Assembly (NCBI GenBank): GCA_964613485.1
Contig: CAZTHB010000001.1
Coordinates: forward strand, 21,064-85,063
DNA from: an uncultured Candidatus Saccharibacteria bacterium
GTDB lineage: Bacteria > Patescibacteriota > Saccharimonadia > CAILAD01 > GCA-016700035
Length of the DNA stretch: 64,000 nt
Direction: 5' to 3'
Shown here: piece by piece, positions 16,251-33,096 of the stretch
How positions within the stretch are numbered: position 1 is the stretch's first letter
Layout of the letters: every line of letters starts with the position of its first letter
Program-made: the position numbers and the translations under genes
The notes under the pieces: model-generated
Seen by the model: only the letters and a program-made list of their open reading frames with translations
The model's database searches: none
What the model was told of the DNA's origin: nothing

Positions 16251-16348
16251 GCGCTTAACGTGCTTCTCAAGTGTAACTATATTCAGGGTCCCCTCCTTTT
16301 GTTTGCGCCAATCCTAAAATGCGCTAATGCCAGTATAGCTTATTGATC

Positions 16349-17260: not shown

Positions 17261-17949
17261 TAGAGTATATACCTTCCGACTTTTTCGTCTTTCACAATCC
17301 GTCCTCGCTGAATAGTAATCACGCGACGCTTCAAGGCATTCACAATCTCTTTGTTGTGCGTCGTAAGCAATACAGTCGTACCAAACTTATTGATCTTCAA
17401 GAGCAGCTCGATAATATCCCATGAGTTCTTGGGGTCGAGATTACCGGTTGGCTCATCGGCAATCAGGATCTTTGGATTGCGCACCAAAGCCCGCGCGATC
17501 GCCACACGCTGCTTCTCTCCACCCGATATCTCGCCTGGATAATTACTCGCCTTCTCAGCCAGCCCTACTAACTGCAAGATTTTCGGGACAGCACGACGTA
17601 TCTCGCTCGTACGCACCCCACTCACTTCAAGCGCAAAGGCAACATTCTCATATACAGTGAGATTTGGTAGTAGCTTGAAGTCCTGGAAGACCACCCCAAT
17701 GCGGCGACGCAAATGAGGGATATTTTTCTTCGTGATCGTATCGTAGTCGATCGAGCCCACGATGATCTTTCCACTTGTCGGGTCTTCTTCTTTAATAAGT
17801 AAACGAATGAGTGTGGACTTACCTGCTCCAGATGAACCCACTACCGTCACAAATTCTTTTGGTTGAATATGCAAACTAACGCCGCTCAAGGCGACGGTCT
17901 TGTTTGGATACATAACTGTAACACGGTCTAGCAAAATCACTGCAGTCAT
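17260..17949 (-). CDS. ftsE: Cell-division ATP-binding protein FtsE
   Basis: Walker A GSSGAGKST, ABC signature LSGGEKQR, Walker B ILIADEPTGNLD. Confidence 0.85.
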   Translation of the reverse strand: MTAVILLDRVTVMYPNKTVALSGVSLHIQPKEFVTVVGSSGAGKSTLIRLLIKEEDPTSGKIIVGSIDYDTITKKNIPHLRRRIGVVFQDFKLLPNLTVYENVAFALEVSGVRTSEIRRAVPKILQLVGLAEKASNYPGEISGGEKQRVAIARALVRNPKILIADEPTGNLDPKNSWDIIELLLKINKFGTTVLLTTHNKEIVNALKRRVITIQRGRIVKDEKVGRYIL

Positions 17950-17984
17950 TTTACCACAGCCAACTCACTGCGTGGGGTCGAATT

Positions 17985-17998
17985 TGCTATAGTATAAG
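17985..17998 (+). promoter_or_regulatory. Extended -10 element (TGcTATAGT) 9 nt upstream of the murA ATG; probably a leaderless transcript
   Basis: ttTGcTATAGTataagcactATG with no SD sequence. Confidence 0.4.
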
Positions 17999-18002
17999 CA
18001 CT

Positions 18003-19253
18003 ATGGCACAACTCATCATCACTGGCCCTACTCCTCTCCATGGCGAATGGCATACTGCTGGGTCAAAGAACGCCGTCCTGCCAATGCTTGCGGCAACGCT
18101 CCTAAGCAGTGAACCGGTGACGCTCCACAATGTACCGGATCTGAGTGATGTAGAAGTTATGTGTGAGATTCTCGAGAGTCTCGGCGCGCAGATCACCCGC
18201 ACAGACCACGCAATACGGGTTGATCCTAGTCACATTCGAGCTGGCAGCATTCCGCAAGATCTGACAGCTAAGATGCGAGCCTCTGTCCTGGTATTAGGCG
18301 CTGCAGTTGCGCGTACTGGCGACATCGCCATTGCTCAGCCTGGAGGAGACATCATTGGTGCACGACCAATCGCCAGCCATCTTAAGGCGTTTGAAGAGCT
18401 CGGCTACACCGTCTCGATAGATAACATTAGTACTCGTGTCAGCGGCATCAATCGCGGCGGGCGCGTCATCCTTGGTGAGCTGACCGTAACTGGTACAGAG
18501 AATGCGATTATGGCTGCCTGTCTCGGCTCGCACACCACCGAGCTTCGAATGGTAGCGGTAGAGCCACATGTCGTCGACTTCTGCCACATGCTGGCTCACC
18601 TCGGTGCGAGGATTGAAGGCATTGGCACTCACAATCTCATTATTCATGCAGTAGACACACTTCATGGCGGTGAATGGCGCGTACCAGCTGACCAACTCGA
18701 ATCAGGCACTATGGCAATCGCAGCTGCAGCAAGCCGCGGAGAGCTGGTTGTACATGATTTTATTATCAACGAACACGATGCACTGCTGACTATCTTTGAC
18801 GCAATAGGAGTACGCTACCAGCTTATAGACGCCAAGACAATTCACATACTCGCCGGAGGCCCATACCGAGCGATTAATGTTCGCACCCAGCCCTACCCAA
18901 ACTTCCCCTCTGACCTCCAAACACCCTTGGCTGTCTTACTGACCCAATGTGAAGGCACATCTGAGATATTTGAGACCCTATATGAAGGACGTCTGCAGTA
19001 TCTATTTGAATTGCAGCGCATGGGCGCTTCTGTTGCAATCCGCGATGCCCATACCGGCATGATTACAGGACCAACGCCGTTGGTTGGGACTGAACTAGTA
19101 AGCTACGACATTCGAGCTGGAGCTACTATGCTGATTGCTGGCATGATCGCCCACGGCACAACCACGCTCGATCGCATCGAGCACATTGACCGCGGCTACG
19201 AACACATCGATACCCGGCTAAATGCAGTCGGCGCACGCCTTCAACGAATATAG
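18003..19253 (+). CDS. murA: UDP-N-acetylglucosamine 1-carboxyvinyltransferase
   Basis: ITGPTPLHGEWHTAGSKNAVLPMLAATLL and EPSP-synthase-like fold motifs. Confidence 0.9.
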   Translation: MAQLIITGPTPLHGEWHTAGSKNAVLPMLAATLLSSEPVTLHNVPDLSDVEVMCEILESLGAQITRTDHAIRVDPSHIRAGSIPQDLTAKMRASVLVLGAAVARTGDIAIAQPGGDIIGARPIASHLKAFEELGYTVSIDNISTRVSGINRGGRVILGELTVTGTENAIMAACLGSHTTELRMVAVEPHVVDFCHMLAHLGARIEGIGTHNLIIHAVDTLHGGEWRVPADQLESGTMAIAAAASRGELVVHDFIINEHDALLTIFDAIGVRYQLIDAKTIHILAGGPYRAINVRTQPYPNFPSDLQTPLAVLLTQCEGTSEIFETLYEGRLQYLFELQRMGASVAIRDAHTGMITGPTPLVGTELVSYDIRAGATMLIAGMIAHGTTTLDRIEHIDRGYEHIDTRLNAVGARLQRI

Positions 19254-20351
19254 CTAGTCTGTCGTGCCGATCTGTTTCGTGAGATACGCTTCGATAAACG
19301 GCTCAATCCCACCCGACAGGACGCCGTCAGTATCGCTTGTCTCGTAATCTGTGCGATGATCTTTGACTTTTTGATATGGATGCAATACGTACGAGCGAAT
19401 CTGCTGACCCCAGTCGGCCGAGGTGAGTTTACCGCGCAGCTCAGAAATTGACTCAAGATGCTGCTCACGGGCAAGATTTGCCAGGCGAGCTGCAAGAATA
19501 CTCATGGCTTTAGTTTTATTCTTCAGTTGTGAGCGCTCATTTTGAATGCTTACAACAATACCAGTTGGAAGGTGTGTGATACGCACGGCTGAATCTGTCG
19601 TATTCACACTCTGACCACCATGCCCACCAGCACGAAAGACATCGATACGGAGGTCTTTTTCGTCAAGTTCGACCTCCTCCATCGGAATCTCAGGTACGAC
19701 ATCGACCAGTGCGAAGCTTGTTTGACGTAGATTATCGCTATTGAAAGGGCTGAGACGCACTAAGCGATGCACGCCTTTCTCACTCTTAAGCTTACCGTAA
19801 GCGAATGGCCCACTAATCTCTAGTGTAGCGGACTTAATACCAGCTTCTTCGCCTCGAGAGATGTCAATCAATACCGCGTTCAAATCAAGCTTCTCGGCCG
19901 CCCGTGTATACATCGTCAGAAGCATCTCTGCCCAATCCTGAGCATCGGTGCCACCCACGCCAGCTGAGATCTGAATAATCGCCGGCGACTTATCGTATGG
20001 TCCGGATAACTTCACCGTCAGCATCATATTCCGAACAGACTCGGCCATACTATCTGTCGTTTCGCGAAACGCCTTCATGAGTGATTCTTCGTTCGGATCA
20101 GACATTTGGGCGAGTTCTAGGTTTGTCTTAATCGACTCCTCAATCACATCCCAGCTTTCGATAAACTTACGCAATAAGGCCGCCTCTCGACTCACCCGCT
20201 GTGCCTCTCCCTGGTCAGACCAAAAACCAGGCGCATTCATACGCGCCTCAAGCTCTTCAAGTACTTTTTGTTCAGACTGCAAATGAAGCTGCTCTTTTGC
20301 AGCCTGCACTTCTTCGAGAAGGTTTGTCAATTGGTCAATGATTGGTTTCAT
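19254..20351 (-). CDS. prfB: Peptide chain release factor 2 (uninterrupted, no programmed frameshift)
   Basis: SPF tripeptide (RLSPFNS) and the GGQ motif ([17 protein letters not shown]). Confidence 0.85.
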   Translation of the reverse strand: MKPIIDQLTNLLEEVQAAKEQLHLQSEQKVLEELEARMNAPGFWSDQGEAQRVSREAALLRKFIESWDVIEESIKTNLELAQMSDPNEESLMKAFRETTDSMAESVRNMMLTVKLSGPYDKSPAIIQISAGVGGTDAQDWAEMLLTMYTRAAEKLDLNAVLIDISRGEEAGIKSATLEISGPFAYGKLKSEKGVHRLVRLSPFNSDNLRQTSFALVDVVPEIPMEEVELDEKDLRIDVFRAGGHGGQSVNTTDSAVRITHLPTGIVVSIQNERSQLKNKTKAMSILAARLANLAREQHLESISELRGKLTSADWGQQIRSYVLHPYQKVKDHRTDYETSDTDGVLSGGIEPFIEAYLTKQIGTTD

Positions 20352-20482
20352 AACGATATGTTTCGAATACGTTTATTTACAATAGATTATAGTATACCCC
20401 ATATACCAAAAAAGCCGCCGAGCAAATGCTCATACGGCCTTTCTGTTGCACACCTCGTCTAGAGGCGATGGTTTTCACCAGC

Positions 20483-21682
20483 TTATTGGTTGCGAAGTGC
20501 GCTTGTCAGAGCCTTGCGGCTACGACGGTAGAAGTAACCTGCATAGGTCAACCCGGTTGTACCGAGAAGACCAGCTGCAGCCCCTTCAAGACCAGTCTCC
20601 GGCAGGCTTGTACCTGTTCCGCCAGTAGTTGGCGTAGTAGGAGTTACTGTTGGAGTAGGATTACAGCGGCTATCGCCTACTGGAATACCTGGCTTACATT
20701 CCTGTGGTCCTGCGACCGTTACCTTGGTGTGAGCTTCAGCAAACTTCATTTGTTCGCCAACCTTTACACCTGCAACGTTCTTCAGGTCGTAATTACCTGG
20801 CTTAAGCTTAGAATCAATCTTAGCCTGATACAGTACGTACCCTACAGCACCTGGAGCATAATCGCCGATATTGATACCGCCCTTAGTGAGGCCATCAGAG
20901 ACAGCCACAGCATCAGGATGGTTACCATTGGCAAGCTTGGTGCTTCCCTGAACGTAAGTTACGTTTGCAGGAAGCGTATCTGCAATCTGAACGTTCTTCA
21001 AGACAGTGTTACCACCGTTTTGGAACTTGATGCGATACTCAAGCGTATCACCAGACTTAGCAGTGTTCTCGGTAACCCAGTCTTTTTGACCAAGTACGCG
21101 GACTTGCTTCGAAATACCAACAATGTCGGTCTTCACACGAAGCTTAACAGTGATTGTAGCTTCGAAGTTAAAGCAAGGCTTTGCGTTCTCGAGGACAACT
21201 CCACCATTCAAGAGCGCTTGCTCCTGAGCTGGGGTGAGGCCTTCAGTTACCCAGTTTGGCTGCTCGTTGGTGCCTTTGTTGTGACGCCACATAGCGGTAC
21301 CAGGAACCATTTCGAGATAGCTGTTGTCTGGAGCGAGATTGACGGTAGCATTGGTGTTTACAGTGTTACCATTGTCGGCACTAATCGTGCCGTTGATTTT
21401 TTGAATTTTGCCAGCAGCAGTTGGAAGCTGCAATTTGGCCTTGAGGTTTTGAGCGACTTTTCCGCTGTCAGCATTCTCCATGTTGTGATACCACAACTGA
21501 ACCTGGACAGTTTCATCAGTCTTTGCATTGGTGCTTGCATTGTACATTTGTTCACCGGCCGAAGCGTTTGCAACACCGAGACGTGATTCGAGACGAACCG
21601 TGTCAGTAGCATGCGCAGCAAGCGGGGTGAGTACGAGACCAGCAGCCAGAACTACATTACGTAGCTTAGTAAGCAGTGTCAT
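20483..21682 (-). CDS. LPXTG-anchored cell-surface protein (sortase substrate)
   Basis: N-terminal signal peptide MTLLTKLRNVVLAAGLVLTPLAAHA. C-terminal LPETG, a hydrophobic segment and a RRSRK tail. Confidence 0.8.
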   Translation of the reverse strand: MTLLTKLRNVVLAAGLVLTPLAAHATDTVRLESRLGVANASAGEQMYNASTNAKTDETVQVQLWYHNMENADSGKVAQNLKAKLQLPTAAGKIQKINGTISADNGNTVNTNATVNLAPDNSYLEMVPGTAMWRHNKGTNEQPNWVTEGLTPAQEQALLNGGVVLENAKPCFNFEATITVKLRVKTDIVGISKQVRVLGQKDWVTENTAKSGDTLEYRIKFQNGGNTVLKNVQIADTLPANVTYVQGSTKLANGNHPDAVAVSDGLTKGGINIGDYAPGAVGYVLYQAKIDSKLKPGNYDLKNVAGVKVGEQMKFAEAHTKVTVAGPQECKPGIPVGDSRCNPTPTVTPTTPTTGGTGTSLPETGLEGAAAGLLGTTGLTYAGYFYRRSRKALTSALRNQ

Positions 21683-21843
21683 GTATGACTCCTTTCTTTC
21701 GAGACCCTTCTGAAAAGAAGGAAGCTCGGAAAGTGCTTATGTTATGTAATATGATTGCTTTGCCGTCAATCGGTAATATTCGACGTATGCACTTCTATTA
21801 AGCTTGTGAAAGGTCGCTCCACCAGATGGTGTATGACCTGTAG

Positions 21844-21872
21844 ATATTATCATACTTAAGCATTTTTGTCAA
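21844..21872 (-). promoter_or_regulatory. Near-consensus sigma70 promoter (TTGACA-17-TAATAT) driving the LPXTG gene
   Basis: The reverse complement reads ttgaca aaaatgcttaagtatga taatat. Lies about 160 nt upstream of the ATG at 21682. Confidence 0.55.
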
Positions 21873-21953
21873 TATATTTTGTCTCGTTTTTAAGTGGGTG
21901 TGGCAGCTCAGGATATCTTGATGCTGCGCACAATCTGTAAATAAAAAAGAATG

Positions 21954-21984
21954 GGGGCCGAGCGCTTGCGCGCTCGGCCCCGGG
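21954..21984 (-). terminator. GC-rich intrinsic terminator at the left edge of the GC-rich island
   Basis: Perfect 12-bp stem ggggccgagcgc/gcgctcggcccc with loop ttgc. On the minus strand it is followed by attctttttta. Confidence 0.65.
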
Positions 21985-22028
21985 TTTGAACCTGAACATA
22001 CAGCCGAGTCGGAAGGGTCTTCCCCTAC

Positions 22029-23087
22029 TTAGCAGTATGCAGGCGGATTGGCCGTCTGACAGGGGTCACCCACTGCCGGCGGGTCGGTCGTCACCGGCGC
22101 CTCGGGAGGCGGGGTGGGAGCGAAGCTCACCGGAGGGGTCGCCCCCGGCGGGATGGTGGATCCCGGCACCGTCGTCCCCGGGTTGTAGCCCGGAGTCGGC
22201 GGCAGCGTCGAAGGCGGCTGGTACGGCGGGGTGCTGACGTCGCCACCACCACCACACACCCAGACGCCACCGACCAGCTTCCACCCCTTCTCACACTTCC
22301 AGGCCGTCGTCGTCGGGGACGGCGGCACGGTGGTGCTCGAGGGTGTCGGTGGGACGGTGGTCGACGGAGTCGTCACGGTAGCCGGAGGCTTCGGCACGGT
22401 CGGGGGCGGCAGCTTGGGCTGCCTGGGCGACGGCGGCGTGGTCTTCGGCGGGACAGCCGGCGGGAACGATTGCTCCACCGGTTGGAATCCGCAGTCGAGC
22501 TTGAGGTTCTTCACACCCTGGGGCGTGTCGAATCTCAGCACCGCGAAGGACGGCTTGTCCGGAGAGGCGTTGTACACCTCCGGGATCTGTCGTCCCTCGG
22601 GAACCATGTAGAGGGTCTTGTAAGCACCCTTCACGGTCTCGATGCGCGGGTTGCCCTGCGCGACCGCGTCGGTCACTGCCAGAATCGTGAGGCGCCAGGC
22701 CTCCTGGTTCTGGATCAGATTGGCCGTCTTGTCGACACGCTCGTCCGGAGACGAGAAGGCGCCCGTGATGTACTCCTGCAGTGCGACCGCCAGAGCGGGG
22801 TCGGTGCAGAGGCGCCTCTTCAGCTCGACCTGAGCCTGCGAAGCCTCCTCGGGAACAGCAGGACCGAAGCGATGACCGCCAGCGTCCTGAGCCCAGAAGT
22901 AGACCCCGTTCACACAGGTCTGTTCCCCACCGGGGTTGGCCGTTGTGGTGGTCGTTGTGGTGGGTTCGTCGGCACGGGGATTGTCGTCCCCGCTTGCCTC
23001 CTTCGCGGCGAGGACGCCACCGAGGAGCAGAAGTGCGCTGAAGAACAGCGCCATGATCGTGATGACTCTGCGTTGCATGAGCATCAT
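22029..23087 (-). CDS. Secreted Pro/Thr-rich protein with Cys-containing ends (island gene c)
   Basis: Signal peptide LFFSALLLLGGVLAA, a TTTTTT and PT-rich linker, GC3-rich codons. The start is probably the internal ATG at 23078, 9 nt after the AAGGA SD. Confidence 0.6.
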   Translation of the reverse strand: MMLMQRRVITIMALFFSALLLLGGVLAAKEASGDDNPRADEPTTTTTTTANPGGEQTCVNGVYFWAQDAGGHRFGPAVPEEASQAQVELKRRLCTDPALAVALQEYITGAFSSPDERVDKTANLIQNQEAWRLTILAVTDAVAQGNPRIETVKGAYKTLYMVPEGRQIPEVYNASPDKPSFAVLRFDTPQGVKNLKLDCGFQPVEQSFPPAVPPKTTPPSPRQPKLPPPTVPKPPATVTTPSTTVPPTPSSTTVPPSPTTTAWKCEKGWKLVGGVWVCGGGGDVSTPPYQPPSTLPPTPGYNPGTTVPGSTIPPGATPPVSFAPTPPPEAPVTTDPPAVGDPCQTANPPAYC

Positions 23088-23142
23088 TCCTTTCGGTTCG
23101 AGTGTTCAGGTTCGGAGTTTTTACGTTTTTACACAACCTATT

Positions 23143-23158
23143 GATGAGCATGCTCATC
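23143..23158. promoter_or_regulatory. Perfect 16-bp palindrome GATGAGCATGCTCATC in the AT-rich region upstream of island gene c
   Basis: Self-complementary when read directly. Candidate operator for a dimeric regulator. Confidence 0.4.
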
Positions 23159-23181
23159 CACAGGAGAATGAAAAAACTTGT

Positions 23182-23210
23182 TTGGTGAGGGTCCGAAGAC
23201 CCCCACCAAA
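23182..23210 (-). terminator. Intrinsic terminator of island gene b
   Basis: ttggtgagggtc-cgaa-gacccccaccaa stem (one mismatch) with a T-tract on the minus strand. Confidence 0.5.
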
Positions 23211-23230
23211 CGTACTGACGAGAAGCCAGA

Positions 23231-24103
23231 TCAGGAGGAACTACGCGCTCCGGCCGAGGCCGAAGCACCGACCGCCACCCTGGGTTGCACCTGAGTCGGC
23301 GTGCCACCCCCACCGGAAGGCGAGGTGGTGACCGAGGCAGGTGCCGGCGGTGCCGGAGTGGTACCCGTCGAGGCCGAAGCACCCGCAGCTGCGGTGACGG
23401 CGGTCGAGGAATCCCCCGACCGCACACCGAGCACGTGAGCGACGATCACGACAAGCACCGTGAACAGGCCGGCCAGACCGAGCTGATTCGGCCTGTTCCA
23501 CTCCTCCAAGAGCATGGCGATGATCCACCAGCTGATGAAGAAGGTCCCGATCGTGAGCCCCGCGAAGAGCGCCCAGCTGATACCGCTCGAATCCGAGCGG
23601 ATGCTGGCGATGGCCTTGGCCATCGCGCTGTGCTGGGAGTCCAACCGGTTCAGTGTCGGATCGACGATGTCGTGTCGCCACGACTTGATCGCCTTGAGCG
23701 ACGCATCGTGGGCCTCGACCTGCACCTCCACGGCGAGCAGACGATCCGAGAAGGACTGGATCTGCTCCTGAGCGGACCTGGCCGCGTTCTGGGCGACCAA
23801 GAGGTCGTTGGCGAAGGCGTCGGACTTCTTGACCTTGGCCTCGAGATCGTTGACGCGCTGGTCGAGGAAGGCGATGGTAGCCACCTTCTCATTCAGCTCG
23901 TCGAGCTGCTGCCGGAAGGCAGCATCGGAGGTACGCGACTGGAGGCCGCTGATCTCCTTCTGGATCTGTGGGATCAGCTCGCCCCGCATGTTGTCGGACG
24001 AAGCAGCCAGGATGGCGACGAGCTTCTTGAGCTGGTCGACATCGGCGCGCAACGCCGGTACGAGTCGCCGATCGGTGACAGGTGTGGAAATCGGGTGTGT
24101 CAT
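23231..24103 (-). CDS. Coiled-coil membrane protein with two TM helices and a Ser/Thr/Ala/Gly/Pro-rich tail (island gene b)
   Basis: Heptad-like N-terminal half, hydrophobic segments ISWALFAGLTIGTFFISWWIIAMLL and LGLAGLFTVLVVIVAHVLG, GC3-rich codons. A TTGATT-17-TATGTT promoter and an AAAGGGG RBS lie upstream. Confidence 0.6.
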   Translation of the reverse strand: MTHPISTPVTDRRLVPALRADVDQLKKLVAILAASSDNMRGELIPQIQKEISGLQSRTSDAAFRQQLDELNEKVATIAFLDQRVNDLEAKVKKSDAFANDLLVAQNAARSAQEQIQSFSDRLLAVEVQVEAHDASLKAIKSWRHDIVDPTLNRLDSQHSAMAKAIASIRSDSSGISWALFAGLTIGTFFISWWIIAMLLEEWNRPNQLGLAGLFTVLVVIVAHVLGVRSGDSSTAVTAAAGASASTGTTPAPPAPASVTTSPSGGGGTPTQVQPRVAVGASASAGARSSS

Positions 24104-24220
24104 GGTTCCCCTTTTGTGGAGGTTCGTTCTCGTCCCCTATTGAAACGAGAGATACCCCAACATACCATACTTTCATAAAAAAATCAATACCTTTACCAAG
24201 CATAAGTGGTGTAATTAAGA

Positions 24221-24257
24221 AAAAAAACAGGGTACCTGGCCCGAAGGCCAGGTACCC
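24221..24257 (-). terminator. Intrinsic terminator of island gene a
   Basis: Perfect 12-bp stem gggtacctggcc-cgaa-ggccaggtaccc followed on the minus strand by tgtttttttt. Confidence 0.7.
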
Positions 24258-24275
24258 GTGTAGCTAACACGTACG

Positions 24276-25967
24276 TCAGCTATACATTCCTGCCAGAACG
24301 TCCGCCACCGAAGCAGTGGGGTTCTCGCGGTAGAAGTCGACAGCCGACCGATACGTGGCCTCCTGGACGCCGACGGCAACGAGCACCGGCGGAGCCTGTG
24401 GAGGCTGATCGTTCGGAGCCTGGTCGTCGGAGCCATCTGCGCCTTCCGGCTCGATGATTTCGGCGACTTCAGCCTCAAGCGCATCGCTCGCGGGCTCATC
24501 ACCCGTCAGCTCTGCATCAGCCTGCCAGTCGAAGACCGGCTCGGCATCAGCTGTGGTAAGAGCAGCTGCATCCGGCCGGTCAGCAGAGTCGTCAGAACCT
24601 TCGGGTTCGTCTGTCTCTGCCTGCCAGTCATAGGGCCTATCGGTGGACGAGCCATCCTCTCGAGTGATGCGAACACCACCTCCAGGTAGGCTGCCAACGC
24701 TCTTGACTGGCGCCGGCGGAGTGGTCACGTTCCCGGTCGAGAACAGACTCTCCACGGGTTCCGAGGCCGATTCACTACCGGCCTGATCGTGATCCGGCCT
24801 CGCGGCCGAATCACCCGACCGTGCAGCCCTGCGAGCTGCCTTGACGGCCGCCTTGGTACGAGCATCCCAGCCCTCGTCCGACTCACCTTCGAGCCGGACG
24901 AGGGTCTCCCCCGTACGATGCACTCGGAACTGACGCTCGGGGTCGAGCACTTCAGCTTCGGATGAACCGTCACCGGAGCCAGCGTCAACCGGCTCGGCCC
25001 CTTCGGAACCCTTGTCGGGCTCCGGAGAAACAGGATCGTGCTGTGTGACCGGCAGGGGTGGCGGCGAAGGTAGGGTGGCCTCCACCTCGCGAGAACGAGG
25101 CTCGCGGGTACGCTCCGGCTTCGGCTTGGTGCCGGGCCAGAACCACTCCGCGAGGAACTCCTCGGGCTCGCGCTCCTCCCTGGACATCCAGAAGGCAGTG
25201 GTATAGTACCAGGCCTTCTTTCTCAGGTCCGCATCTGCATCGAGCTCTTCTCGAGACGGTGAATAGGCTTCATCGCCCTTGCCGATCCTGAAGAGACGAT
25301 CTTCGTCCACGCCGAGCTTCATGCCCAGGGTGTAGATCTGATTCGCCAGCTCCATGATGTCCTCACCACCGTAGTTGCGAGCCATCACGATGTGCTCCAT
25401 CAGCTGCGCCTTGGCTTCCTCGACCGTCAAGCGGACCGACGAGACCAGGACGGCAGCTTCATCCGACCCTTCGGCGCCCTCTTCGGGCACCTCGGGTTCG
25501 GCGATGATGGAATGCGCGGTGGCGACCCACTCAGCAACCGCCTCACGAAGCTCCTTGCGAGCCTGCGTGGCGGCAGTGATGAGCATCTGGTCACCACCCG
25601 AGATCTCGGAGGCATACCAGTCGCGAATCCGCTGCAGCGCAGCTCCCGCGTCGGGATCGATACCAGCTGCGATGAGCTGATCGATCATGTCCCTGACGAG
25701 GATCCGTCGCGGCTTGTCGTCGCCAGAAACACCAGAAGCGGTGCCTTCGGAATCCGTAGCCGGCTCGGCGGCGTCATCCGTCTCAGACGGCTCGGCGGCT
25801 GGATCTGTCGAATCGGAGTCCCCCGACTCGTCTTCGATCTCGGCACGAGGCATGAACGAGATGACCTGAGCGAGTGCCGGGTCATCCTCGTCACCCTTGG
25901 TGAACAGGTCTGGCGACAAGTCCTCGAAGGACCTGAGGATACGAGTATTCATGGGTCGGGGAGACAT
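24276..25967 (-). CDS. Highly acidic hypothetical protein, 563 aa (island gene a)
   Basis: Strong SD AGGGAGGAG 4 nt before the ATG. GC3 is about 65% versus about 45% in the flanking genes. D/E/P/A-rich with no recognisable catalytic motif. Confidence 0.6.
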   Translation of the reverse strand: MSPRPMNTRILRSFEDLSPDLFTKGDEDDPALAQVISFMPRAEIEDESGDSDSTDPAAEPSETDDAAEPATDSEGTASGVSGDDKPRRILVRDMIDQLIAAGIDPDAGAALQRIRDWYASEISGGDQMLITAATQARKELREAVAEWVATAHSIIAEPEVPEEGAEGSDEAAVLVSSVRLTVEEAKAQLMEHIVMARNYGGEDIMELANQIYTLGMKLGVDEDRLFRIGKGDEAYSPSREELDADADLRKKAWYYTTAFWMSREEREPEEFLAEWFWPGTKPKPERTREPRSREVEATLPSPPPLPVTQHDPVSPEPDKGSEGAEPVDAGSGDGSSEAEVLDPERQFRVHRTGETLVRLEGESDEGWDARTKAAVKAARRAARSGDSAARPDHDQAGSESASEPVESLFSTGNVTTPPAPVKSVGSLPGGGVRITREDGSSTDRPYDWQAETDEPEGSDDSADRPDAAALTTADAEPVFDWQADAELTGDEPASDALEAEVAEIIEPEGADGSDDQAPNDQPPQAPPVLVAVGVQEATYRSAVDFYRENPTASVADVLAGMYS

Positions 25968-26111
25968 AGTCTCCTCCCTTCTGTGGTCGTAGTCGAAATG
26001 TAATGGTGCAAAAACACTTCCCCATCAGAGGAGCGTCTGAGTAAAAGTAACATATTTTTGCTAATTGGTCAATGCCTAACACCTCGTCTCGACAAAGACG
26101 GAATCAAAAAT

Positions 26112-26139
26112 ACTTAGCACGCTTACTAGTGTACTAAGT
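26112..26139. promoter_or_regulatory. Imperfect inverted repeat ACTTAGCAC-N10-GTACTAAGT upstream of island gene a
   Basis: 8/9 arm complementarity, in the AT-rich spacer between the 117-aa gene stop and the island gene a start. Confidence 0.3.
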
Positions 26140-26162
26140 ATTCTATGAAACTAACGTGTTGA

Positions 26163-26516
26163 CTATTGAGCGGTGGCGCGGGCCTGAGCCTGTCGCATCA
26201 CTGCTTGCTGATCAGCTACGAGATTGTTCTCAACTTCGATCACCGTCTTCGCCAGGATCTCATCGAAGTCAGGCAATCTATCACGCAAAGCCTGCTCTAC
26301 TTGATCGCCAGATCCAGCGTCAATCAACCCCTCGATATAGGCCATATCGGTTTCGGATAGTCGCTCAGCTGCCTGGTTGATGACGCTCGAGATTACAAGC
26401 TGACTCATCTGATCTGCAAGCTGCTGCTTTTGTTCTTCGGTTGCCTGTGCCATACCGAGGCGTGTAAATACATCTTGGCTCGGCTGGACGGTTGGGTTTT
26501 GCGTGGTTTGGTCCAT
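26163..26516 (-). CDS. Small acidic helical protein (117 aa), hypothetical
   Basis: ORF 24 nt downstream of the 999-aa gene on the same strand, so probably co-transcribed. Confidence 0.5.
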   Translation of the reverse strand: MDQTTQNPTVQPSQDVFTRLGMAQATEEQKQQLADQMSQLVISSVINQAAERLSETDMAYIEGLIDAGSGDQVEQALRDRLPDFDEILAKTVIEVENNLVADQQAVMRQAQARATAQ

Positions 26517-26539
26517 AGTATTCTCCTTAAATTACCTTT

Positions 26540-29539
26540 CTACCGCAATGTGCCAGCACGTAACATAGCCTTGAGACTATCTACCGACTGCCCTTGCTTA
26601 ATTAACTCAGCGATGCGACTTGCGTTATTGAGGACTGCCTCCTGACCCTCTACGATACGCCCCCCAAGAGGAATAGCGTGCTCGTTTGAGAGGTCTCCAG
26701 TCAACTGATCAAATACCCTAAACTGTTCGGCGTCCGTAAATCCGAGCTTCGGCCGAATCTTATCAATATCCTTCAGAAGCTCTGGATTAAAGCCAGTTGG
26801 AGGACTTGCCTCACCTGCCTGAACCTTATCAATCCACTTAAATAGGTTCATTGTACGCTCATCAGCTTGAGCTTGGGAGATACCAAATTCATTCGGACCG
26901 CTAGCTCGTGCACCTTGGAAACGTGCTTCATCGGGTGACGGTATACGTGGCCCTGAAGGTGGCCCTGGATCACCGGTTGGTGGCTGCGGATCACCAGTCG
27001 GTGGTTTTGGGCGACCCCCGCCACCGTTGCGCAAGAAGTACCCGCCAACCACTGATGCCACACCGGCGACTACACCGGCGATCTTAGCTGTACGAGCCGA
27101 TTTCGCATCACGACTCATCCGCTCCATCTGATCTTTGAGTAGTGCACTCGTAATTTCAGCTGCTTTCTCAGTATCCCCAGCTAATATCTTATTCAGACTC
27201 TCCGGCCCAAACAAAGCTTGGTTATTCTTCGTCATAAACTCCTGGAATGCCTTCGGGTCACGGACATCTAAGCCCTGTTCTTGTGCCTGATTGGCTGTGT
27301 ATTCAATATCACCCTTGTAGCTATCTCCCATCTCGGCATTAGCTTGCTTCATCTCGCCGCGGTTGCGGAATTTCTCACGCCAGCCATGACCGATATTCCA
27401 TGCACCCTCGACCCCCATGAAAGCACCCACGCCGCGCATCGCCGCAGCACCACCAGCCATGATGATACCCGGCACTCCACCAAGAGCGAGCCCACCGGCC
27501 GCAAGCCCAACACCAATCGCAAGACGAGTCTTCGGATGCGCCTTCCACCAGTTGCGCAACTTACCGGCAAACTTTTCGGACTTGACCTCTGTTTGAGCTT
27601 CTTCGACCCTTGTACGGAGCTGTGAGAGCTCAAGAGCTAGCGCAGTCTGGAGTTCAACTGGGAATTTCTCAAGTCGCGCAATCTCAGTATCGATATCAGT
27701 AATCTGAGCCATGAGTTCAGCTTCGCGATCAGTGTCGCCAGCCGTACGGGCTCGTTCAAGCTCACGAGTGAACGTCGCCTTGGTTGCCTCTGCAACACCC
27801 TTGGCATACTCCGCATCCTTCAGCGCCTTACCCGAGGTCTCACCTGCATCAGTGAGGAACTGAGCGTAAACATCTTCCACATCAGACTTAGCAGCCTCAA
27901 ACGCCTCAACGCGCCTACCGCCCAAAACTAATGCTTCACGAGCATCTTTCGCCTCGGCTAACTTTCGAATCGCATCGTTTACTTTTTCACTATGAAGCGC
28001 GAAGATACCATCGACAGTTGGTCGGACAAAAGTACCAGGCTCCTTGTCTGAGTCATCTTCTGGCTTCTCTGGATCCTCAGGTGGCGTTGGGCCTTCCGGG
28101 CCTGGGTCCTCTGGTGGTTTTGGCGGCTCCGGAGGAGTTGGTTCGCCAGGACCGAATGGAGGCTTCGAGTAATCAATAAATGGCGTTACTTCATCGCTAT
28201 CCTCTGGTGTAGTAGGAGTCTCGGTTGGTACGGCCGGCTTAGACTGCCAGAAGTTCTCCTGCATATCCGCGTCAGACTCCGTGGCCTGCTGCCACTTCTC
28301 TTGCGTCTGCTCAAAGGCTGGGCTCTTATAAACATCTTGAGCTTGCTGTGCGGTATAGTAGGCTTCGTTATGCCGTACTCGCGACATTGCTTCCTCAGTA
28401 TCGAGCGCAAATTGCCGCGTAGAGTTGAGTTCGCGTAATATTAACCCATCGCGCTCTCCTTGTGATGGACCAACTACTGAGTACTGCTTGGTTTCACCAT
28501 CAGCAGTCGTATAGCTGACCACTTCGTTTGGCTGATACCCAGACTGTGCTTCACTTCTACTTGGAGTCGTAGCTTCGGCCTGCGCAGTATCTGCAGGAGC
28601 CTCTGCAGTCCCACCGTGCATTTGCTGTGCAAAAGCAGTTGCACGCTCACCATAGCTTCGTGCAGCATCGGCGTTATTTCTGATCTCTTCAAGCTCGGAG
28701 CTTAATGTCTCGCCTTGTGATTGCCCTTGAGCCTGCTCGTCCTCTGAACCCCTATTTACTTCGCTATCCGGCATGATTTTCGTTTCCTCTAATGCTTTTG
28801 TTCCATCATATACATCCGCCCCTCTTGCCGTCAATCCACCTTGTACATTGAGGCGCTGATAATCCTCATCATTAGGCTCGGCATCACGACGGTCTTGTTG
28901 GCGTTCCAGACGACGCTCCACACGGCGCTCATAGCTAATATCACGCGGAGAGGACGCTACCGGAGCAGACGCAGGGGTGGGGGTGGGAGTTGGTTCAGCT
29001 GACGTAATCTCGCCGGTCCAAAAATCAGAACCCACACGTACCAAGCCAGATCGAACTGCAGGCATTACATACGTTACGTAGTCCTCTATCCTTACGCCCT
29101 CTGCACGATACTGCTCTTTTGCCTTATCATATCCAGGTAAGCTTTTCAGAAAATGAGAGATTTCCCGATTCGACATTTTGCGAAAGTCAGGCCTAACATA
29201 GTGCTCTGCTCCAGGCTTAACGCGTCCGGTTCGTTTATCGAGTGCGCGAAGCGACTGACGATATTCCCCATCTGCATCGATGAAAGCGCGCTCTTCTCGC
29301 TTCACCGTATCTGCGAGACCCTGCATATCCGATTCATCACTAACGGCTAATAATTCTGGGTTGGAGAGGTCATCTTCATGTGTCTGCGTGAGTGCCATGA
29401 GCGCATCGCGACGCTGCCGTGCGACGTCTGTAATCCGTCTCGGATGATCAACCGGAAGCTCCTCAACTGAATCTCGAGATTGTTCACCTCTATGCTGACG
29501 ACTCATATTGCCTCCAAGATAACAGTAGTAATTATGCAC
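26540..29539 (-). CDS. Large (999 aa) hypothetical protein with Pro-rich linkers, coiled coil and Gly-zipper-like hydrophobic segments
   Basis: No N-terminal signal peptide. PTPTPTP and PEPPKPPEDPGPEGP linkers. Gly-rich hydrophobic helices LAIGVGLAAGGLALGGVPGIIMAGGAAAM and IAGVVAGVASVVGGYFL, then a GDPQPPTGDPGPP segment. Confidence 0.6.
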   Translation of the reverse strand: MHNYYCYLGGNMSRQHRGEQSRDSVEELPVDHPRRITDVARQRRDALMALTQTHEDDLSNPELLAVSDESDMQGLADTVKREERAFIDADGEYRQSLRALDKRTGRVKPGAEHYVRPDFRKMSNREISHFLKSLPGYDKAKEQYRAEGVRIEDYVTYVMPAVRSGLVRVGSDFWTGEITSAEPTPTPTPASAPVASSPRDISYERRVERRLERQQDRRDAEPNDEDYQRLNVQGGLTARGADVYDGTKALEETKIMPDSEVNRGSEDEQAQGQSQGETLSSELEEIRNNADAARSYGERATAFAQQMHGGTAEAPADTAQAEATTPSRSEAQSGYQPNEVVSYTTADGETKQYSVVGPSQGERDGLILRELNSTRQFALDTEEAMSRVRHNEAYYTAQQAQDVYKSPAFEQTQEKWQQATESDADMQENFWQSKPAVPTETPTTPEDSDEVTPFIDYSKPPFGPGEPTPPEPPKPPEDPGPEGPTPPEDPEKPEDDSDKEPGTFVRPTVDGIFALHSEKVNDAIRKLAEAKDAREALVLGGRRVEAFEAAKSDVEDVYAQFLTDAGETSGKALKDAEYAKGVAEATKATFTRELERARTAGDTDREAELMAQITDIDTEIARLEKFPVELQTALALELSQLRTRVEEAQTEVKSEKFAGKLRNWWKAHPKTRLAIGVGLAAGGLALGGVPGIIMAGGAAAMRGVGAFMGVEGAWNIGHGWREKFRNRGEMKQANAEMGDSYKGDIEYTANQAQEQGLDVRDPKAFQEFMTKNNQALFGPESLNKILAGDTEKAAEITSALLKDQMERMSRDAKSARTAKIAGVVAGVASVVGGYFLRNGGGGRPKPPTGDPQPPTGDPGPPSGPRIPSPDEARFQGARASGPNEFGISQAQADERTMNLFKWIDKVQAGEASPPTGFNPELLKDIDKIRPKLGFTDAEQFRVFDQLTGDLSNEHAIPLGGRIVEGQEAVLNNASRIAELIKQGQSVDSLKAMLRAGTLR

Positions 29540-29612: not shown

Positions 29613-32234
29613 CTAACGCCGTTTTTTCTTCTTGTGCTTCTTCTTTGAAGTAGGTTTTGATGCTGTGCGGCGAATGACGCCTTTTTCGCGACCGATACGC
29701 TCAGACTCCTTGAGTGCCCGAGCTCGCGACGGAGCAGTGTTCGCTTCCGATGTCGATGCAATCTCGACTGCCTGCTTGGCGGCCTTCGTGATCTCCGTCT
29801 CGATCGGCTGCTCTTCGGGCTTGGCCGCGAGATCTACACGTACCTTAAAGAGTGTATGAGCAATCTCTGAGTCAATGCGGCGCTGCAGCTCGCCAAACAT
29901 CCGGTATGATTCTTGCTTGTACTCCACCAGCGGATCCCGCTGTGCGTACCCACGCAGGCCGATACCACTACGTAAATGCTCCATAGTCTCAAGATGCTCG
30001 AGCCATGAAGAATCGATCGTATTGAGCGAAACCATACGTTCGATGACCATCACGCCCTCATCACCAAATTCGAGATAGCGCTGACGATACATGTCTTCGA
30101 CGATATCCATAAATTGCTTGATGAGTAAGTCATGATCACGGGATTTCTGGTCTTTCTCCCAGCCCTTATCAAGCGGGATGACATCTCGCACGCCCTGCGC
30201 AAGTTTCTCCAGATCCAAAATGTCTGTTTGAGGATCGGTCGCTCCGGCAATCAGGGCTCGGAATTCAGCCTCGAAAAGTGGAATCATATCATCTTTGAGT
30301 GAATCCTTCTTAAGAATGGTGCGACGGCGAGCGTACATAATCTCACGGTGTTGATTCATAACGTCGTCGTACTCGACGAGATTTTTGCGGATATCGAAGT
30401 TATGTCCCTCGACCTTCTTCTGAGCCGACTCGAGTGACCGAGAAACCATACGATTCTCAATCGGCATATCATCCGGCAAGCCTAATGCCTCCATCATAGA
30501 GCCGATGCGCTCACTACCGAAGATACGCATCAGATCATCTTCTAGCGATACATAAAACTGACTCGAACCTGGATCACCCTGACGACCCGCACGTCCACGC
30601 AACTGATTGTCGATGCGGCGTGATTCATGACGTTCAGTACCAAGCACATGCAAGCCGCCAAGCTCCGCCACGCCATTACCGAGCAAAATATCTGTACCAC
30701 GACCGGCGATGTTTGTTGCTAGCGTGACAGCGCCCTTTTGACCAGCTTCAGCAATAATCTCAGCTTCAGCCTCATTATTCTTCGCATTCAATACTCGATG
30801 TGGCACACCGGCCTTCGTCAGTTGGGCGCTGAGATGTTCATTCTTATCGATCGAGACCGTACCCAGCAAGACTGGCTGCCCCTTGGCATGACGCGCTGCT
30901 ACATCCTGAGCAACCGCTTCGAACTTGGCCTTCTCGGTCTTGTAGATCTTGTCGGGAAGATCATCGCGAATCATTGGCTGATGCGTCGGAATGGTCGTTA
31001 CCTCTAGCTTGTAAATCTTGCCAAACTCCTCGGCCTCAGTCACCGCCGTACCAGTCATACCGGATAGCTTCTTATATAAACGGAAGAGATTTTGGAATGA
31101 TACCGTCGCTAGCGTCTGACTCTCCTGCTGAATAGTCACACCTTCCTTAGCTTCGATTGCCTGATGTAACCCCTCACTATAACGTCGACCTGGCAGCATG
31201 CGACCAGTAAACTCATCGACAATGATAATCTCGCCATCCGGACTAACGACATAATCGCGATCTTTCTGGAATACAGCTTCGGCCTTGAGAGCAGCCTCGA
31301 TATGATGCACATCTTCAATTCGCCCCGCCTCGTACACATTGTCAACTCCGAGAGCTTTCTCGATACGCGAGATGCCTTCCTCGGTAATACTAACTGCCTT
31401 CTGCTTCTCATCCACTGTGTAATCAGCATCTCGCTTTAGTCCTGCTGCGATCTTTGCAAACTGATAATAGCGATCTGTCGGCTTGGCATGCGGCTGGGAG
31501 ATAATGAGAGGCGTACGAGCTTCATCAATCAAAATAGAGTCAACTTCGTCAACGATAGCGTAGTGGAGTCCCCGTTGTACCATTTGATCAACGTGCTGAA
31601 CCATATTATCGCGCAGGTAGTCAAAGCCATACTCATTATTTGTGCCATAGGTGATGTCTGCCGCGTAGGCTTCCTTGCGGGTCACGGGGCGCAGATGACG
31701 TAAGCGCTCATCGGCATGTGACTCATCGGTATATTCTGGATCGTAGACAAAGCTAGAATCATGCATGATCACCGATGTCGTGAGTCCTAGAAAATGATAG
31801 ATTTGGCCCATCCACCCTGCCCCAATACGCGCAAGATAATCATTCACCGTCACCAAGTGAGCGCCCTCTCCTTCGAGCGCATTAAGGTATAGCGGTAACG
31901 TCGCTACAAGAGTCTTACCTTCACCAGTGCGCATCTCGGCGATCCCACCTTGATGGAGAACTAATCCTCCGATCAGCTGTACATCAAAGTGACGCTGCTT
32001 GATAACACGATGGCTTGTCTCTCGAACAACTGCAAACGCTCGCTCAAGCACATCATCGAGCTTCTTGCCTGCTTCGATTTCGGTCTTGAATTTCTTCGTT
32101 TCAGCTTTCAGTTGCTTATCAGACAGTGTACGGATTTCTTCTTCGAGTGCATTAATCCGCTCCACACGAGCTCGAAGCTTGCGTACGACTCGCTCATTTG
32201 GGTCACCTAAAATACGTGAAAAAATATTTGCCAT
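29613..32234 (-). CDS. secA: Preprotein translocase ATPase SecA (C-terminus Lys-rich, no Zn-binding CTD)
   Basis: N-terminus [24 protein letters not shown]-like motor motifs, 873 aa. TATACT sits 11 nt upstream of the ATG with no SD. Confidence 0.9.
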
Positions 32235-32348: not shown

Positions 32349-32696
32349 CTAACCGGTGTCACCGGCAATATGCGCCTCTAAGTCACGCAACCATCCATCA
32401 TCGTCGCCGTTGATGTGATCGTGAAAATCGATCAGGTCGTCGTAGGTGATGGCGCCGCCATCTTTTGGGTGTTCTTCGAGCTCCTTCGGCAACCGCCAAG
32501 AACTCAACGCACAGCCGGCGGACACCAAGATGTCCACCACCTGCTCATCAGCACCCCTCACTTCTGTCATCCGACAGACGGGGCAGCGAAACAGATATGT
32601 GGCTTGCTTTGTGTCCTCGCAAACACGCACTCGCACATCACAACTGCGCAAGTCTACATCACCACACTCACTACAGGTAGCACGAATGAGTGCCAT
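32349..32696 (-). CDS. Small Cys4 zinc-ribbon protein, paralog 1
   Basis: CSECG...x20...RCPVCR. Homologous to the upstream paralog. RBS GAAAGGA. Confidence 0.55.
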   Translation of the reverse strand: MALIRATCSECGDVDLRSCDVRVRVCEDTKQATYLFRCPVCRMTEVRGADEQVVDILVSAGCALSSWRLPKELEEHPKDGGAITYDDLIDFHDHINGDDDGWLRDLEAHIAGDTG

Positions 32697-32742
32697 AGTG
32701 CTCACATCCTTTCGGGGAAGTTGGGGGTTGAGGATGAGTGGC

Positions 32743-33096
32743 TTACTCCAGGTGGAGAATCAGCGAATCGTCGAGGGATTCATCGAGACAATCCGTACCG
32801 GGATACCACGTAACGAGCACACCCTTGGTAGGGATACCGCGCTCGGACAATACTGTCGGTCCATGAACGCCAGCCGTATGGAGCTGAGCAACCATGTCGT
32901 CAGTGGCAAGCACAAACGGCTGCTTACCACAGATGGTGCATCTGAAGGACAGTGTTCCCACTCGACCATTGAGGATCTCTTGCTTAACCTCGGCTGCTCG
33001 TCGGGCTGGATTAGCCCCACAGAACGGACACGGGATACGCAAGTATGCACCATCGGGTGAGAAGGATGGATCAGTTGGAAGGTTCTTTTCCGCCAT
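32743..33096 (-). CDS. Small Cys4 zinc-ribbon protein, paralog 2
   Basis: CPFCG...x22...RCTICG. RBS AAAGGGGA 6 nt before the ATG. Driven by a consensus promoter. Confidence 0.55.
   Translation of the reverse strand: MAEKNLPTDPSFSPDGAYLRIPCPFCGANPARRAAEVKQEILNGRVGTLSFRCTICGKQPFVLATDDMVAQLHTAGVHGPTVLSERGIPTKGVLVTWYPGTDCLDESLDDSLILHLE

Follow-up and report, generated by a model that had tools for sequence, protein, structure and literature searches.

Here, we describe a block of six genes between prfB and secA in a 64,000-nucleotide stretch of DNA (hereafter, the window) from an uncultured Candidatus Saccharibacteria bacterium (GenBank assembly GCA_964613485.1, contig CAZTHB010000001.1, positions 21,064 to 85,063). 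The block is an inherited, Saccharibacteria-specific set of envelope genes and not an accessory island, and it consists of at least two independent modules. The first of these (part A) pairs a 988-residue protein, P988, which belongs to a newly defined family, with a small acidic protein, P117; the second (part B) comprises the GC-rich middle genes for P563, P290, and P352 and the gene for a surface protein with an LPXTG motif. A sizeable part of bacterial diversity belongs to Saccharibacteria and other Patescibacteria, whose cells live attached to those of other bacteria. No function is known for most of their envelope proteins, and the P988 family adds a candidate component to this set. That the block encodes resident structural scaffold and surface-layer components of the epibiont envelope, as opposed to exported effectors, is a reading to which we assign an even chance.

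Conservation of the secA-prfB interval

An earlier note on this DNA had reported a cluster of an LPXTG protein, a GC-rich island, a large protein, and a 117-residue partner between prfB and secA. All six open reading frames (ORFs) were recovered where that note had placed them, on the minus strand (Table 1). For comparison, 80 SecA-anchored loci, mostly from metagenome-assembled genomes of Saccharibacteria or Saccharimonadia, served as relatives (designated by L numbers), and the DNA downstream of secA in these loci was examined by tblastn and profile searches. The order secA, large protein, ~112-residue protein, two or three GC-rich genes, LPXTG protein with a DUF11 domain (DUF, domain of unknown function), and prfB recurs in about 15 species-level relatives, with SecA sequences 65–95% identical to that of the window, and is also present in L001 and L091. 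Beyond prfB lie ftsE and ftsX, with murA between in the closest relatives, and the wider order serS-hpf-secA ... prfB-ftsE-ftsX is conserved across related genomes. The window secA itself lies in this order and encodes the full SecA domain set. The identity of the block proteins declines together with SecA identity, which points to vertical inheritance.

The interval, which had been proposed to be a hypervariable accessory cluster wedged between two housekeeping genes, is thus neither mobile nor accessory, and a false lead is removed. Conservation and synteny in relatives, which the earlier note had named as grounds against its own reading, are largely borne out, without being universal in Saccharibacteria. 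In distant members of the group, an insulinase-like gene and other genes follow secA instead of the block, and in Southlakia epibionticum the secA-prfB interval holds genes for an insulinase and a hypothetical protein, murD, and htpX.

The block is also divisible. The P988-P117 pair was found without the other block genes, and the part composed of the P352-like gene, the LPXTG gene, and prfB was found in genomes that lack the pair; because the two parts occur independently, the block is not one system. At three loci (L029, with SecA 88% identical to that of the window, L011, and L026), the secA-proximal pair is swapped for a DUF5663 gene followed by a gene for a protein of ~1600 residues that contains hydrophobic segments rich in Gly and Ala and is conserved in its C-terminal half (L029 12738-18127, L011 12695-17912, and L026 12603-17792); L024 carries both module types, with the ~1600-residue type at 15226-20460. 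Homology between the P988 family and the ~1600-residue family was considered and dropped, the best profile alignment (hhalign) having a probability of 34% over 26 columns of beta-barrel. In a single lineage, L020/L021, an inserted gene for a 573-residue protein (15787-17508) separates the DUF5663 genes from the GC-rich genes; the protein has no Pfam match and no homologue in the other loci.

P988 defines a family of predicted membrane-anchored coiled-coil proteins

The P988 gene starts at the ATG at position 29506, with GGAGG 5 nt upstream, and the database copies use the same start; the length of 999 residues given in the earlier note, which corresponds to the GTG at 29539, is accordingly corrected to 988. 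An exhaustive HMMER search of 1.84 billion representatives yielded 27 relatives at E ≤ 1e-3, all on Saccharibacteria-type contigs, whereas a word-indexed protein search returned only P988 itself and one 81% identical relative. A hidden Markov model (HMM) of the conserved core, which spans residues ~500-830 (alignment A1), covers 13 secA-adjacent proteins with E values of 1e-34 to 1e-130, and an HMM built from the long forms only recovers the short forms and the member found beside infB (E 1e-12 to 1e-23). No match to P988 was found in Pfam, NCBIfam, PHROGs, or PADLOC, nor any meaningful Pfam match across 21 family members, and searches of PDB sequences with profiles A2 (the P988 core) and A4 gave nothing meaningful. 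The family is newly defined and absent from these four databases.

Proline-rich linkers, a long helical stretch, and the lack of a signal peptide, all noted before, are confirmed. The linkers lie at residues ~170-190, 440-490, and 830-852, AlphaFold2 (AF2) predicts the long helices at 498-656, and the N-terminus is not hydrophobic. Hydropathy analysis revealed three Gly/Ala-rich hydrophobic segments (664-682, 681-699, and 807-825; hereafter, the predicted transmembrane helices TM1, TM2, and TM3) where two Gly-zipper-like segments had been described. The AF2 model, built from 21 sequences, has a mean predicted local distance difference test score (pLDDT) of 67 and is confident at residues 110-160, 320-410, 500-650, 700-820, and 910-988. 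In this model, the N-terminal part leads from a helical domain through an SH3/Tudor-like beta-barrel at ~325-380 and a Pro-rich linker to a long helical hairpin at 498-656; the membrane region is followed by a helical loop, TM3, a Pro-rich stalk, and a helical domain of ~130 residues. The small barrel gave a local match to Tudor/SH3-like folds (residues ~320-410, probability 0.97-0.99, Foldseek against the PDB), and beyond it nothing was found in the PDB at E < 0.2, so that fold prediction and fold search matched no characterised family or system.

The core contains, in order, the helical hairpin, the K/R-rich motif KF.N.WR.HPKTR, the helix 664-682, another and weaker hydrophobic helix in which an Arg and a Gly are invariant, the helical loop, a second K/R-rich stretch, and TM3. 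Within the Gly/Ala-rich hairpin, R661 and G694 are invariant across the family. TM1 is uncharged in 21 of 21 homologues, and in the same set the K/R charge is +5 to +8 ahead of TM1 and +3 to +6 ahead of TM3. Because K/R-rich stretches precede TM1 and TM3, the simplest predicted topology is N-in/C-out: the hairpin at 664-699 enters and leaves the membrane, the loop after it is cytoplasmic, and TM3 leads to a C-terminus outside the cell.

P117 and the conserved pair

The earlier note had recognised no known family in the cluster, a view that stands for the large protein and falls for two others, as the LPXTG protein contains a DUF11 domain (see below) and the 117-residue protein resembles DUF5663. 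P117 matches the DUF5663 profile (PF18908) over positions 5-81 of 84 with 20.7 bits (E 6.3e-4), below the gathering cut-off of 23.7. An iterated HMM that starts from P117 collects 21 small proteins in the same position (E 1e-27 to 1e-43), 18 of the 22 aligned members match PF18908 at E ≤ 0.01, and the cut-off is passed by the 142-residue protein of L020 (31.9 bits) and the 112-residue protein of L016 (24.3 bits). The partners of P0016, P0018, P0020, P0022, and P0024 carry precomputed Pfam calls of DUF5663. Judged by these profile matches, P117 is a divergent DUF5663 protein.

The two genes form a conserved, self-contained module, in agreement with the suggestion that they work as a pair. A DUF5663 gene lies 9-40 nt 3' of the P988-family gene, in the same order, in all of the ~15 genomes with a readable downstream gene, and the pair occurs in at least four contexts: after secA, after a histidine kinase gene, beside an ABC (ATP-binding cassette) transporter, and after infB-rbfA. 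The partner is directly adjacent in the window, as had been described, with a spacer of 23 nt and not 24, and AGGAG precedes the P117 ATG; given this short spacer and a Shine-Dalgarno (SD) sequence of its own, P117 is probably translationally coupled to P988. Both genes are under strong purifying constraint. P117 is 97% identical to its counterpart in L001, and the ratio of nonsynonymous to synonymous divergence (dN/dS) from L001 is 0.02 for P117 and 0.05 for P988, compared with 0.01-0.05 for the housekeeping neighbours. In view of the invariant adjacency and the very strong constraint, the likeliest role of P117 is that of an obligate partner or holder that binds P988 at its predicted cytoplasmic helical part.

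A positional counterpart in Southlakia is scored essential

At one locus, L093, the pair stands in the order infB-rbfA-[872-residue P988-family protein]-DUF5663, and beyond it fmt, def, and priA are encoded on the opposite strand; this is the gene order of SEML1_0160-0166 in Southlakia. To our knowledge, the transposon insertion sequencing (Tn-seq) experiment on Southlakia is the only such data set for the group. In that experiment, SEML1_0161, which encodes a 767-residue hypothetical protein, and SEML1_0162, a DUF5663 gene, were scored as causing a growth defect at P0 and as essential at P1 and P2 (GD/ES/ES), with 12 insertions in SEML1_0161 at T0 and none later, and SEML1_0163, also a DUF5663 gene, was scored as a growth-defect gene (Wang et al., Cell 2023, PMC10633639). 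Tables S1/S2 of that study assign SEML1_0162 and SEML1_0163 to core, Patescibacteria-enriched families, and the structural neighbours listed in the tables for DUF5663 are the C-terminal domain of trigger factor and LTXXQ (Spy/CpxP-like) proteins (PMC10633639). The text of that paper does not discuss SEML1_0161-0163, and among the papers searched we found no other that mentions these genes or DUF5663 in its text.

The likeness extends to spacing, flanks, and size. The gene for the 767-residue protein has one or two DUF5663 genes within 14 nt downstream; an upstream infB and the oppositely oriented downstream genes fmt, def, and priA are shared with L093; and the sizes of 767, 142, and 144 residues mirror those in L020/L053 (750-785, 140-142, and 112 residues). 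Unlike the window pair, the Southlakia genes occupy another chromosomal place and include two DUF5663 genes against one. We infer that SEML1_0161 belongs to the P988 family. Linked by conserved position to two genes scored as essential, the P988-P117 pair becomes a concrete candidate, open to testing, for an envelope component that is both essential and specific to the lineage. A role of DUF5663 proteins as substitutes for a missing trigger factor was rejected, Southlakia having a canonical, non-essential trigger factor. Elsewhere in Southlakia, SEML1_0221-0223 comprise a DUF5663 gene just upstream of serS and two small hypothetical genes, all three non-essential (PMC10633639), which suggests that DUF5663 is a small paralogous family of differing importance.

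The middle genes and the LPXTG protein

The three genes between the pair and the LPXTG gene evolve rapidly: compared with L001, their products are 50-67% identical with a dN/dS of 0.27-0.52, which amounts to protein evolution about ten times faster than that of the neighbours. Each is trailed by its own hairpin terminator with a 12- to 14-bp stem, so the three appear to be separate transcription units. P563 (50% identity, dN/dS 0.27) has a net charge of -70, consists mostly of low-complexity sequence with no transmembrane segment, and is missing from some relatives. P290 (dN/dS 0.35; seven homologues in the same position) combines an N-terminal coiled coil of ~170 residues with predicted transmembrane helices at 181-199 and 209-227 and an Ala/Ser/Thr/Pro-rich tail; it gave only generic coiled-coil matches in Pfam, NCBIfam, PHROGs, and PADLOC.

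P352 has an N-terminal signal anchor, a Thr-rich linker, an alpha/beta domain, and a Pro/Thr-rich region with a conserved Cys. The domain (residues ~60-215) is predicted with pLDDT of 84-97 and has no PDB match at E < 0.39 (Foldseek). Neither P563 nor P352 with its 15 family members matched Pfam, NCBIfam, PHROGs, or PADLOC. A search of 5.8 billion clusters yielded 15 homologues of P352, two of which have a source name ("bacterium" and "Candidatus Saccharibacteria bacterium"), and 14 positional homologues were identified.

The 399-residue protein next to prfB is, as read from its translation and domain scores, a sortase substrate with a DUF11/CLIPPER domain: a signal peptide (MTLLTKLRNVVLAAGLVLTPLAAHA, followed by TD) stands at its start, its C-terminal end (LPETGLEGAAAGLLGTTGLTYAGYFYRRSRK) combines LPETG with a hydrophobic stretch and a basic tail, and it scores 32.8 bits against PF01345 (cut-off 24.6) and 50.6 against TIGR01451 (cut-off 24). 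The sequence that follows the membrane segment (YRRSRKALTSALRNQ) resembles the tail of the L091 counterpart (KYRKSRKALAEALKS). All 12 homologues adjoin prfB, and no sortase gene is present in the interval. At four-fold degenerate sites, the LPXTG gene uses codons ending in T at a frequency of 0.46 and in G at 0.10, as do tsf and rpsB; this codon usage suggests that the protein is abundant and its gene highly expressed. With other DUF11 (CLIPPER) LPXTG proteins of Gram-positive bacteria and Saccharibacteria it shares the signal peptide, DUF11 scores above the cut-offs, and LPETG; it differs from other DUF11 surface proteins in being short and single-domain, in its conserved, unusually long basic tail (SRKAL..AL), and in a position beside prfB that is fixed in 12 or more genomes. 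Southlakia also has DUF11 proteins, together with two sortases, one of them essential. An accessory Sec (SecA2/SecY2) adhesin locus was rejected as an explanation of the interval, with no SecY, Asp, or Gtf match among the six proteins and SecA in its conserved order.

Base composition of the middle genes

The GC-rich island described earlier between prfB and secA is real. At 22-26 kb the GC content reaches 0.61-0.68, compared with 0.46-0.54 in the rest of the window, and this is the sole such island in the 64 kb. The GC content at third codon positions (GC3) is 0.81 in P352, 0.82 in P290, and 0.69 in P563, compared with 0.494 ± 0.033 (maximum 0.56) in 46 other window genes, so that the middle genes deviate by z = 5.9-9.9. 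The excess is uniform within each gene and ends at the gene boundaries, with spacers at a GC content of 0.41-0.46. At least 14 relatives show it in their positional homologues (L001, L011, L012, L014, L016, L017, L020, L021, L023, L026, and L028, as well as L029, L037, and L051); in L042, L053, and L091 it is weak or lacking. Across the window and relatives, GC3 ranges from 0.63 to 0.89 in the middle genes and from 0.33 to 0.56 in the flanking genes, and in some genomes flanking values of 0.33-0.40 stand against 0.76-0.84.

Such a composition could reflect acquisition of the GC-rich part from a high-GC donor, for example, an actinobacterial host, in which case the whole interval would be accessory. 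The GC content of 0.61-0.68 against 0.50 for the window is compatible with this explanation, as are codons of the high-GC type (AAG 100%, TTC 100%, ATC 93%, and CCG 56%). We nevertheless consider it largely refuted and give it very little credence. The same genes lie in the same place and are GC-rich in the relatives listed above despite saturated synonymous divergence (dS 0.5-2), their protein identity tracks SecA identity, and the excess respects gene boundaries. An actinobacterial origin of P352 in particular was rejected, all homologues found among the 5.8 billion clusters being of the Saccharibacteria type, and the interval has no integrase, tRNA, or repeat boundaries. With homologues of the Saccharibacteria type only and without repeats or mobility borders, recent transfer is very unlikely.

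Other causes fared no better. Amino-acid composition was discarded, as the GC3 expected with window codon usage is 0.48; translational selection on codons was discarded, as tsf, rpsB, and the LPXTG gene prefer T-ending codons, the opposite trend. Apart from composition, variation driven by a diversity-generating retroelement or by repeats was rejected, no template/variable-type repeats being present, and Rfam searches found nothing in the interval. Synonymous divergence is about 0.7 for P290 and P352, less than for most neighbouring genes (about 1-2 for the large housekeeping genes), and the lower values fit constraint or bias at silent sites. The cause may be selection on transcripts or biased gene conversion in frequently recombining, fast-evolving genes, and the variability among lineages mildly favours a non-essential, process-driven cause. 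A long shot is that a force acting on the nucleic acid itself keeps the middle genes GC-rich across a clade otherwise saturated at synonymous sites, possibly tied to the epibiotic lifestyle: the transcripts or DNA might have to persist or work while touching a high-GC actinobacterial host or within it, or they might need exceptional resistance to nucleases. If that were true, these would be fast-evolving envelope genes with a composition that is itself functional. The excess provides a case for studying how base composition is maintained in small genomes (through mRNA selection, biased gene conversion at a recombination hot spot, or a host-linked factor), and it may offer an easy way to spot these genes in newly sequenced genomes.

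A proposed structural role and its alternatives

We propose that the block supplies resident scaffold and surface-layer components of the envelope, on the strength of the predicted topology, the pairing, the selection regime, and the positional orthology to essential Southlakia genes. P988 would be inserted in the membrane N-in/C-out by the Gly/Ala-rich helical hairpin and the third helix, with ~660 residues of coiled coil and small beta-barrel facing the cytoplasm and the Pro-rich stalk and small helical domain facing outward. P117 would be made from the P988 transcript and bind the cytoplasmic helical part as a partner or holder. From its three separately terminated genes, part B would contribute a disordered protein of acidic character, a membrane protein with a coiled-coil hairpin, and a signal-anchored Pro/Thr-rich protein with a novel domain; its fourth product, the sortase-anchored DUF11 protein, is probably abundant. 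Between them, the products of the two parts would span the cytoplasm, membrane, wall, and surface. A host-interaction or envelope system had been suggested for this cluster; the envelope half of that suggestion fits the predicted wall-anchored protein, the signal-anchored protein, and the two membrane-anchored coiled-coil proteins.

Several observations weigh against the proposed role. TM2 has little hydrophobic character and includes an Arg and a Glu that are conserved, and the AF2 model is of low confidence at residues 665-688, so the topology of P988 could be wrong. The evidence for placing SEML1_0161 in the P988 family is its position and size. The third DUF5663 gene of Southlakia, SEML1_0221, has no large neighbour and is non-essential (PMC10633639), which indicates that a DUF5663 protein need not have a large partner. 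As parts A and B are independent, their adjacency here may carry no functional meaning.

The half of the earlier suggestion that fared less well is the effector: a secretion-substrate/chaperone or membrane-inserting pair, in which P988 would be kept soluble by P117 as its chaperone and exported, perhaps by way of SecA or another apparatus, to act on the host, either as a secreted protein or by insertion into the target membrane. P988 is indeed a large helical protein that lacks a signal peptide and has a hydrophobic hairpin rich in Gly, the gene for a small acidic helical protein lies directly downstream, DUF5663 has chaperone-like structural neighbours in the Southlakia table (PMC10633639), and host-directed proteins are to be expected in epibionts. 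In these respects, the pair resembles IpaB/IpgC of type III secretion systems (T3SS) and the pairs of type VII secretion systems (T7SS), which also combine a large helical protein bearing a hydrophobic hairpin with an adjacent small acidic helical protein. The likeness ends there. No secretion-machinery genes occur in any of the four contexts; the K/R-rich flanks ahead of TM1 and TM3 fit a resident membrane protein; and P988 is encoded by a single-copy, syntenic gene with a dN/dS of 0.05 (0.02 for P117), whereas effectors are typically variable; as core, syntenic, and strongly constrained genes, the pair differs from those T3SS and T7SS pairs. The positional counterpart is essential in co-culture, and DUF5663 is a core family. 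A T7SS pair (WXG100 or LXG with Lap) was specifically rejected: P117 has no tryptophan and hence no WXG motif, neither protein has a WXG100, LXG, or DUF3130-type match, and no FtsK/SpoIIIE-type ATPase (EssC/EccC) is encoded in the interval or related contexts. A T3SS translocator with a class II chaperone was rejected as well, P117 having no tetratricopeptide repeat match and the neighbourhoods no injectisome genes. The claim of an effector pair thus gained no positive support, and we consider it decidedly unlikely, while noting that an essential host-directed role would be compatible with all the points raised against it.

Another explanation, doubtful but somewhat likelier, is that the block, or at least P988, P117, and P290, forms a lineage-specific scaffold for morphogenesis or division that works with FtsEX, MurA, penicillin-binding protein (PBP), and MreBCD and replaces EzrA, DivIVA, or GpsB, which Saccharibacteria may lack. 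Like EzrA, DivIVA/Wag31, GpsB, and MreC, P988 would present a membrane-tethered cytoplasmic coiled coil; the block lies among many wall-synthesis and division genes (ftsE, ftsX, and murA directly downstream, and PBP and mreB-like genes in the window), and the positional counterpart is essential, so that essentiality, too, is a likeness, suggested by position. Unlike those division organisers, P988 has a Gly/Ala-rich hairpin and a third helix, a predicted external Pro-rich stalk, and an obligate DUF5663 neighbour. It also lacks homology to them: no similarity to known division proteins was detected beyond generic coiled-coil matches at E > 0.01. Moreover, the pair also stands beside infB, a histidine kinase gene, and an ABC transporter, and its linkage to ftsEX is not conserved. 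Phage tape-measure proteins are likewise long and alpha-helical with Gly-rich hydrophobic segments, and the best matches of P988 in a library of viral structures are to minor tail or tape-measure proteins (Foldseek, E 4.4e-4, probability 0.75), as would be expected if it were a remnant prophage tail tape-measure or minor tail protein. The TM-scores of these matches are ~0.07-0.09, below 0.1, with a root-mean-square deviation of 38 Å, which denotes generic helix similarity; no PHROG match and no phage gene was found in any context, and the P988 gene is kept between housekeeping genes across the clade. A phage origin is very unlikely, with next to nothing left in its favour, and the resident envelope role remains the reading that we prefer.

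Features of the locus and neighbouring genes

Table 1. Coordinates of the six-gene block, its flanking genes, and associated signals in the window
Feature	Position	Strand	Description	Basis
P988	26540..29506	-	predicted membrane-anchored coiled-coil protein, 988 aa	ORF, SD, ATG
P117	26163..26516	-	predicted acidic helical DUF5663-family protein, 117 aa	ORF, HMM
P563	24276..25967	-	very acidic 563-aa protein	ORF
Terminator-like hairpin after P563	24230..24257	-	12-bp stem, TTCG loop, T-run	
P290	23231..24103	-	coiled coil and two predicted TM helices, 290 aa	ORF, hydropathy
Terminator-like hairpin after P290	23180..23211	-	14-bp stem, TTCG loop	
P352	22029..23087	-	predicted signal-anchored 352-aa protein, Thr-rich linker	ORF, structure prediction
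Terminator-like hairpin after P352	21954..21981	-	12-bp stem, 11 G-C pairs	
Promoter-like site 5' of LPXTG gene	21844..21872	-	TTGACA, 17 nt, TAATAT, with TG	consensus match alone
LPXTG/DUF11 protein	20483..21682	-	predicted sortase-substrate surface protein, 399 aa	ORF, domain scores
secA	29613..32234	-	upstream flank of the six-gene block	
prfB	19254..20351	-	downstream flank of the six-gene block	

A programmed +1 frameshift interrupts prfB in many bacteria; in the window, prfB is one uninterrupted ORF of 365 residues, and the frameshift is apparently absent. Upstream of secA, two types of seryl-tRNA synthetase (SerRS) appear to share one position in the clade. SerRS is 34-38% identical to that of the window in L018, L023, L024, L036, L037, L039, L043, L044, L048, and L049, where SecA identity is 61-68%, and other loci at a similar SecA distance keep 52-56% SerRS identity. 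Between hpf and secA, the window encodes two zinc-ribbon proteins of 117 and 118 residues on the minus strand (32349-32705 and 32743-33096), with weak Lar-like and zinc-ribbon matches. Only the closest relatives have such ORFs (L029 with three or four copies, L012 with a single one), so that this spot beside the conserved block varies among relatives.

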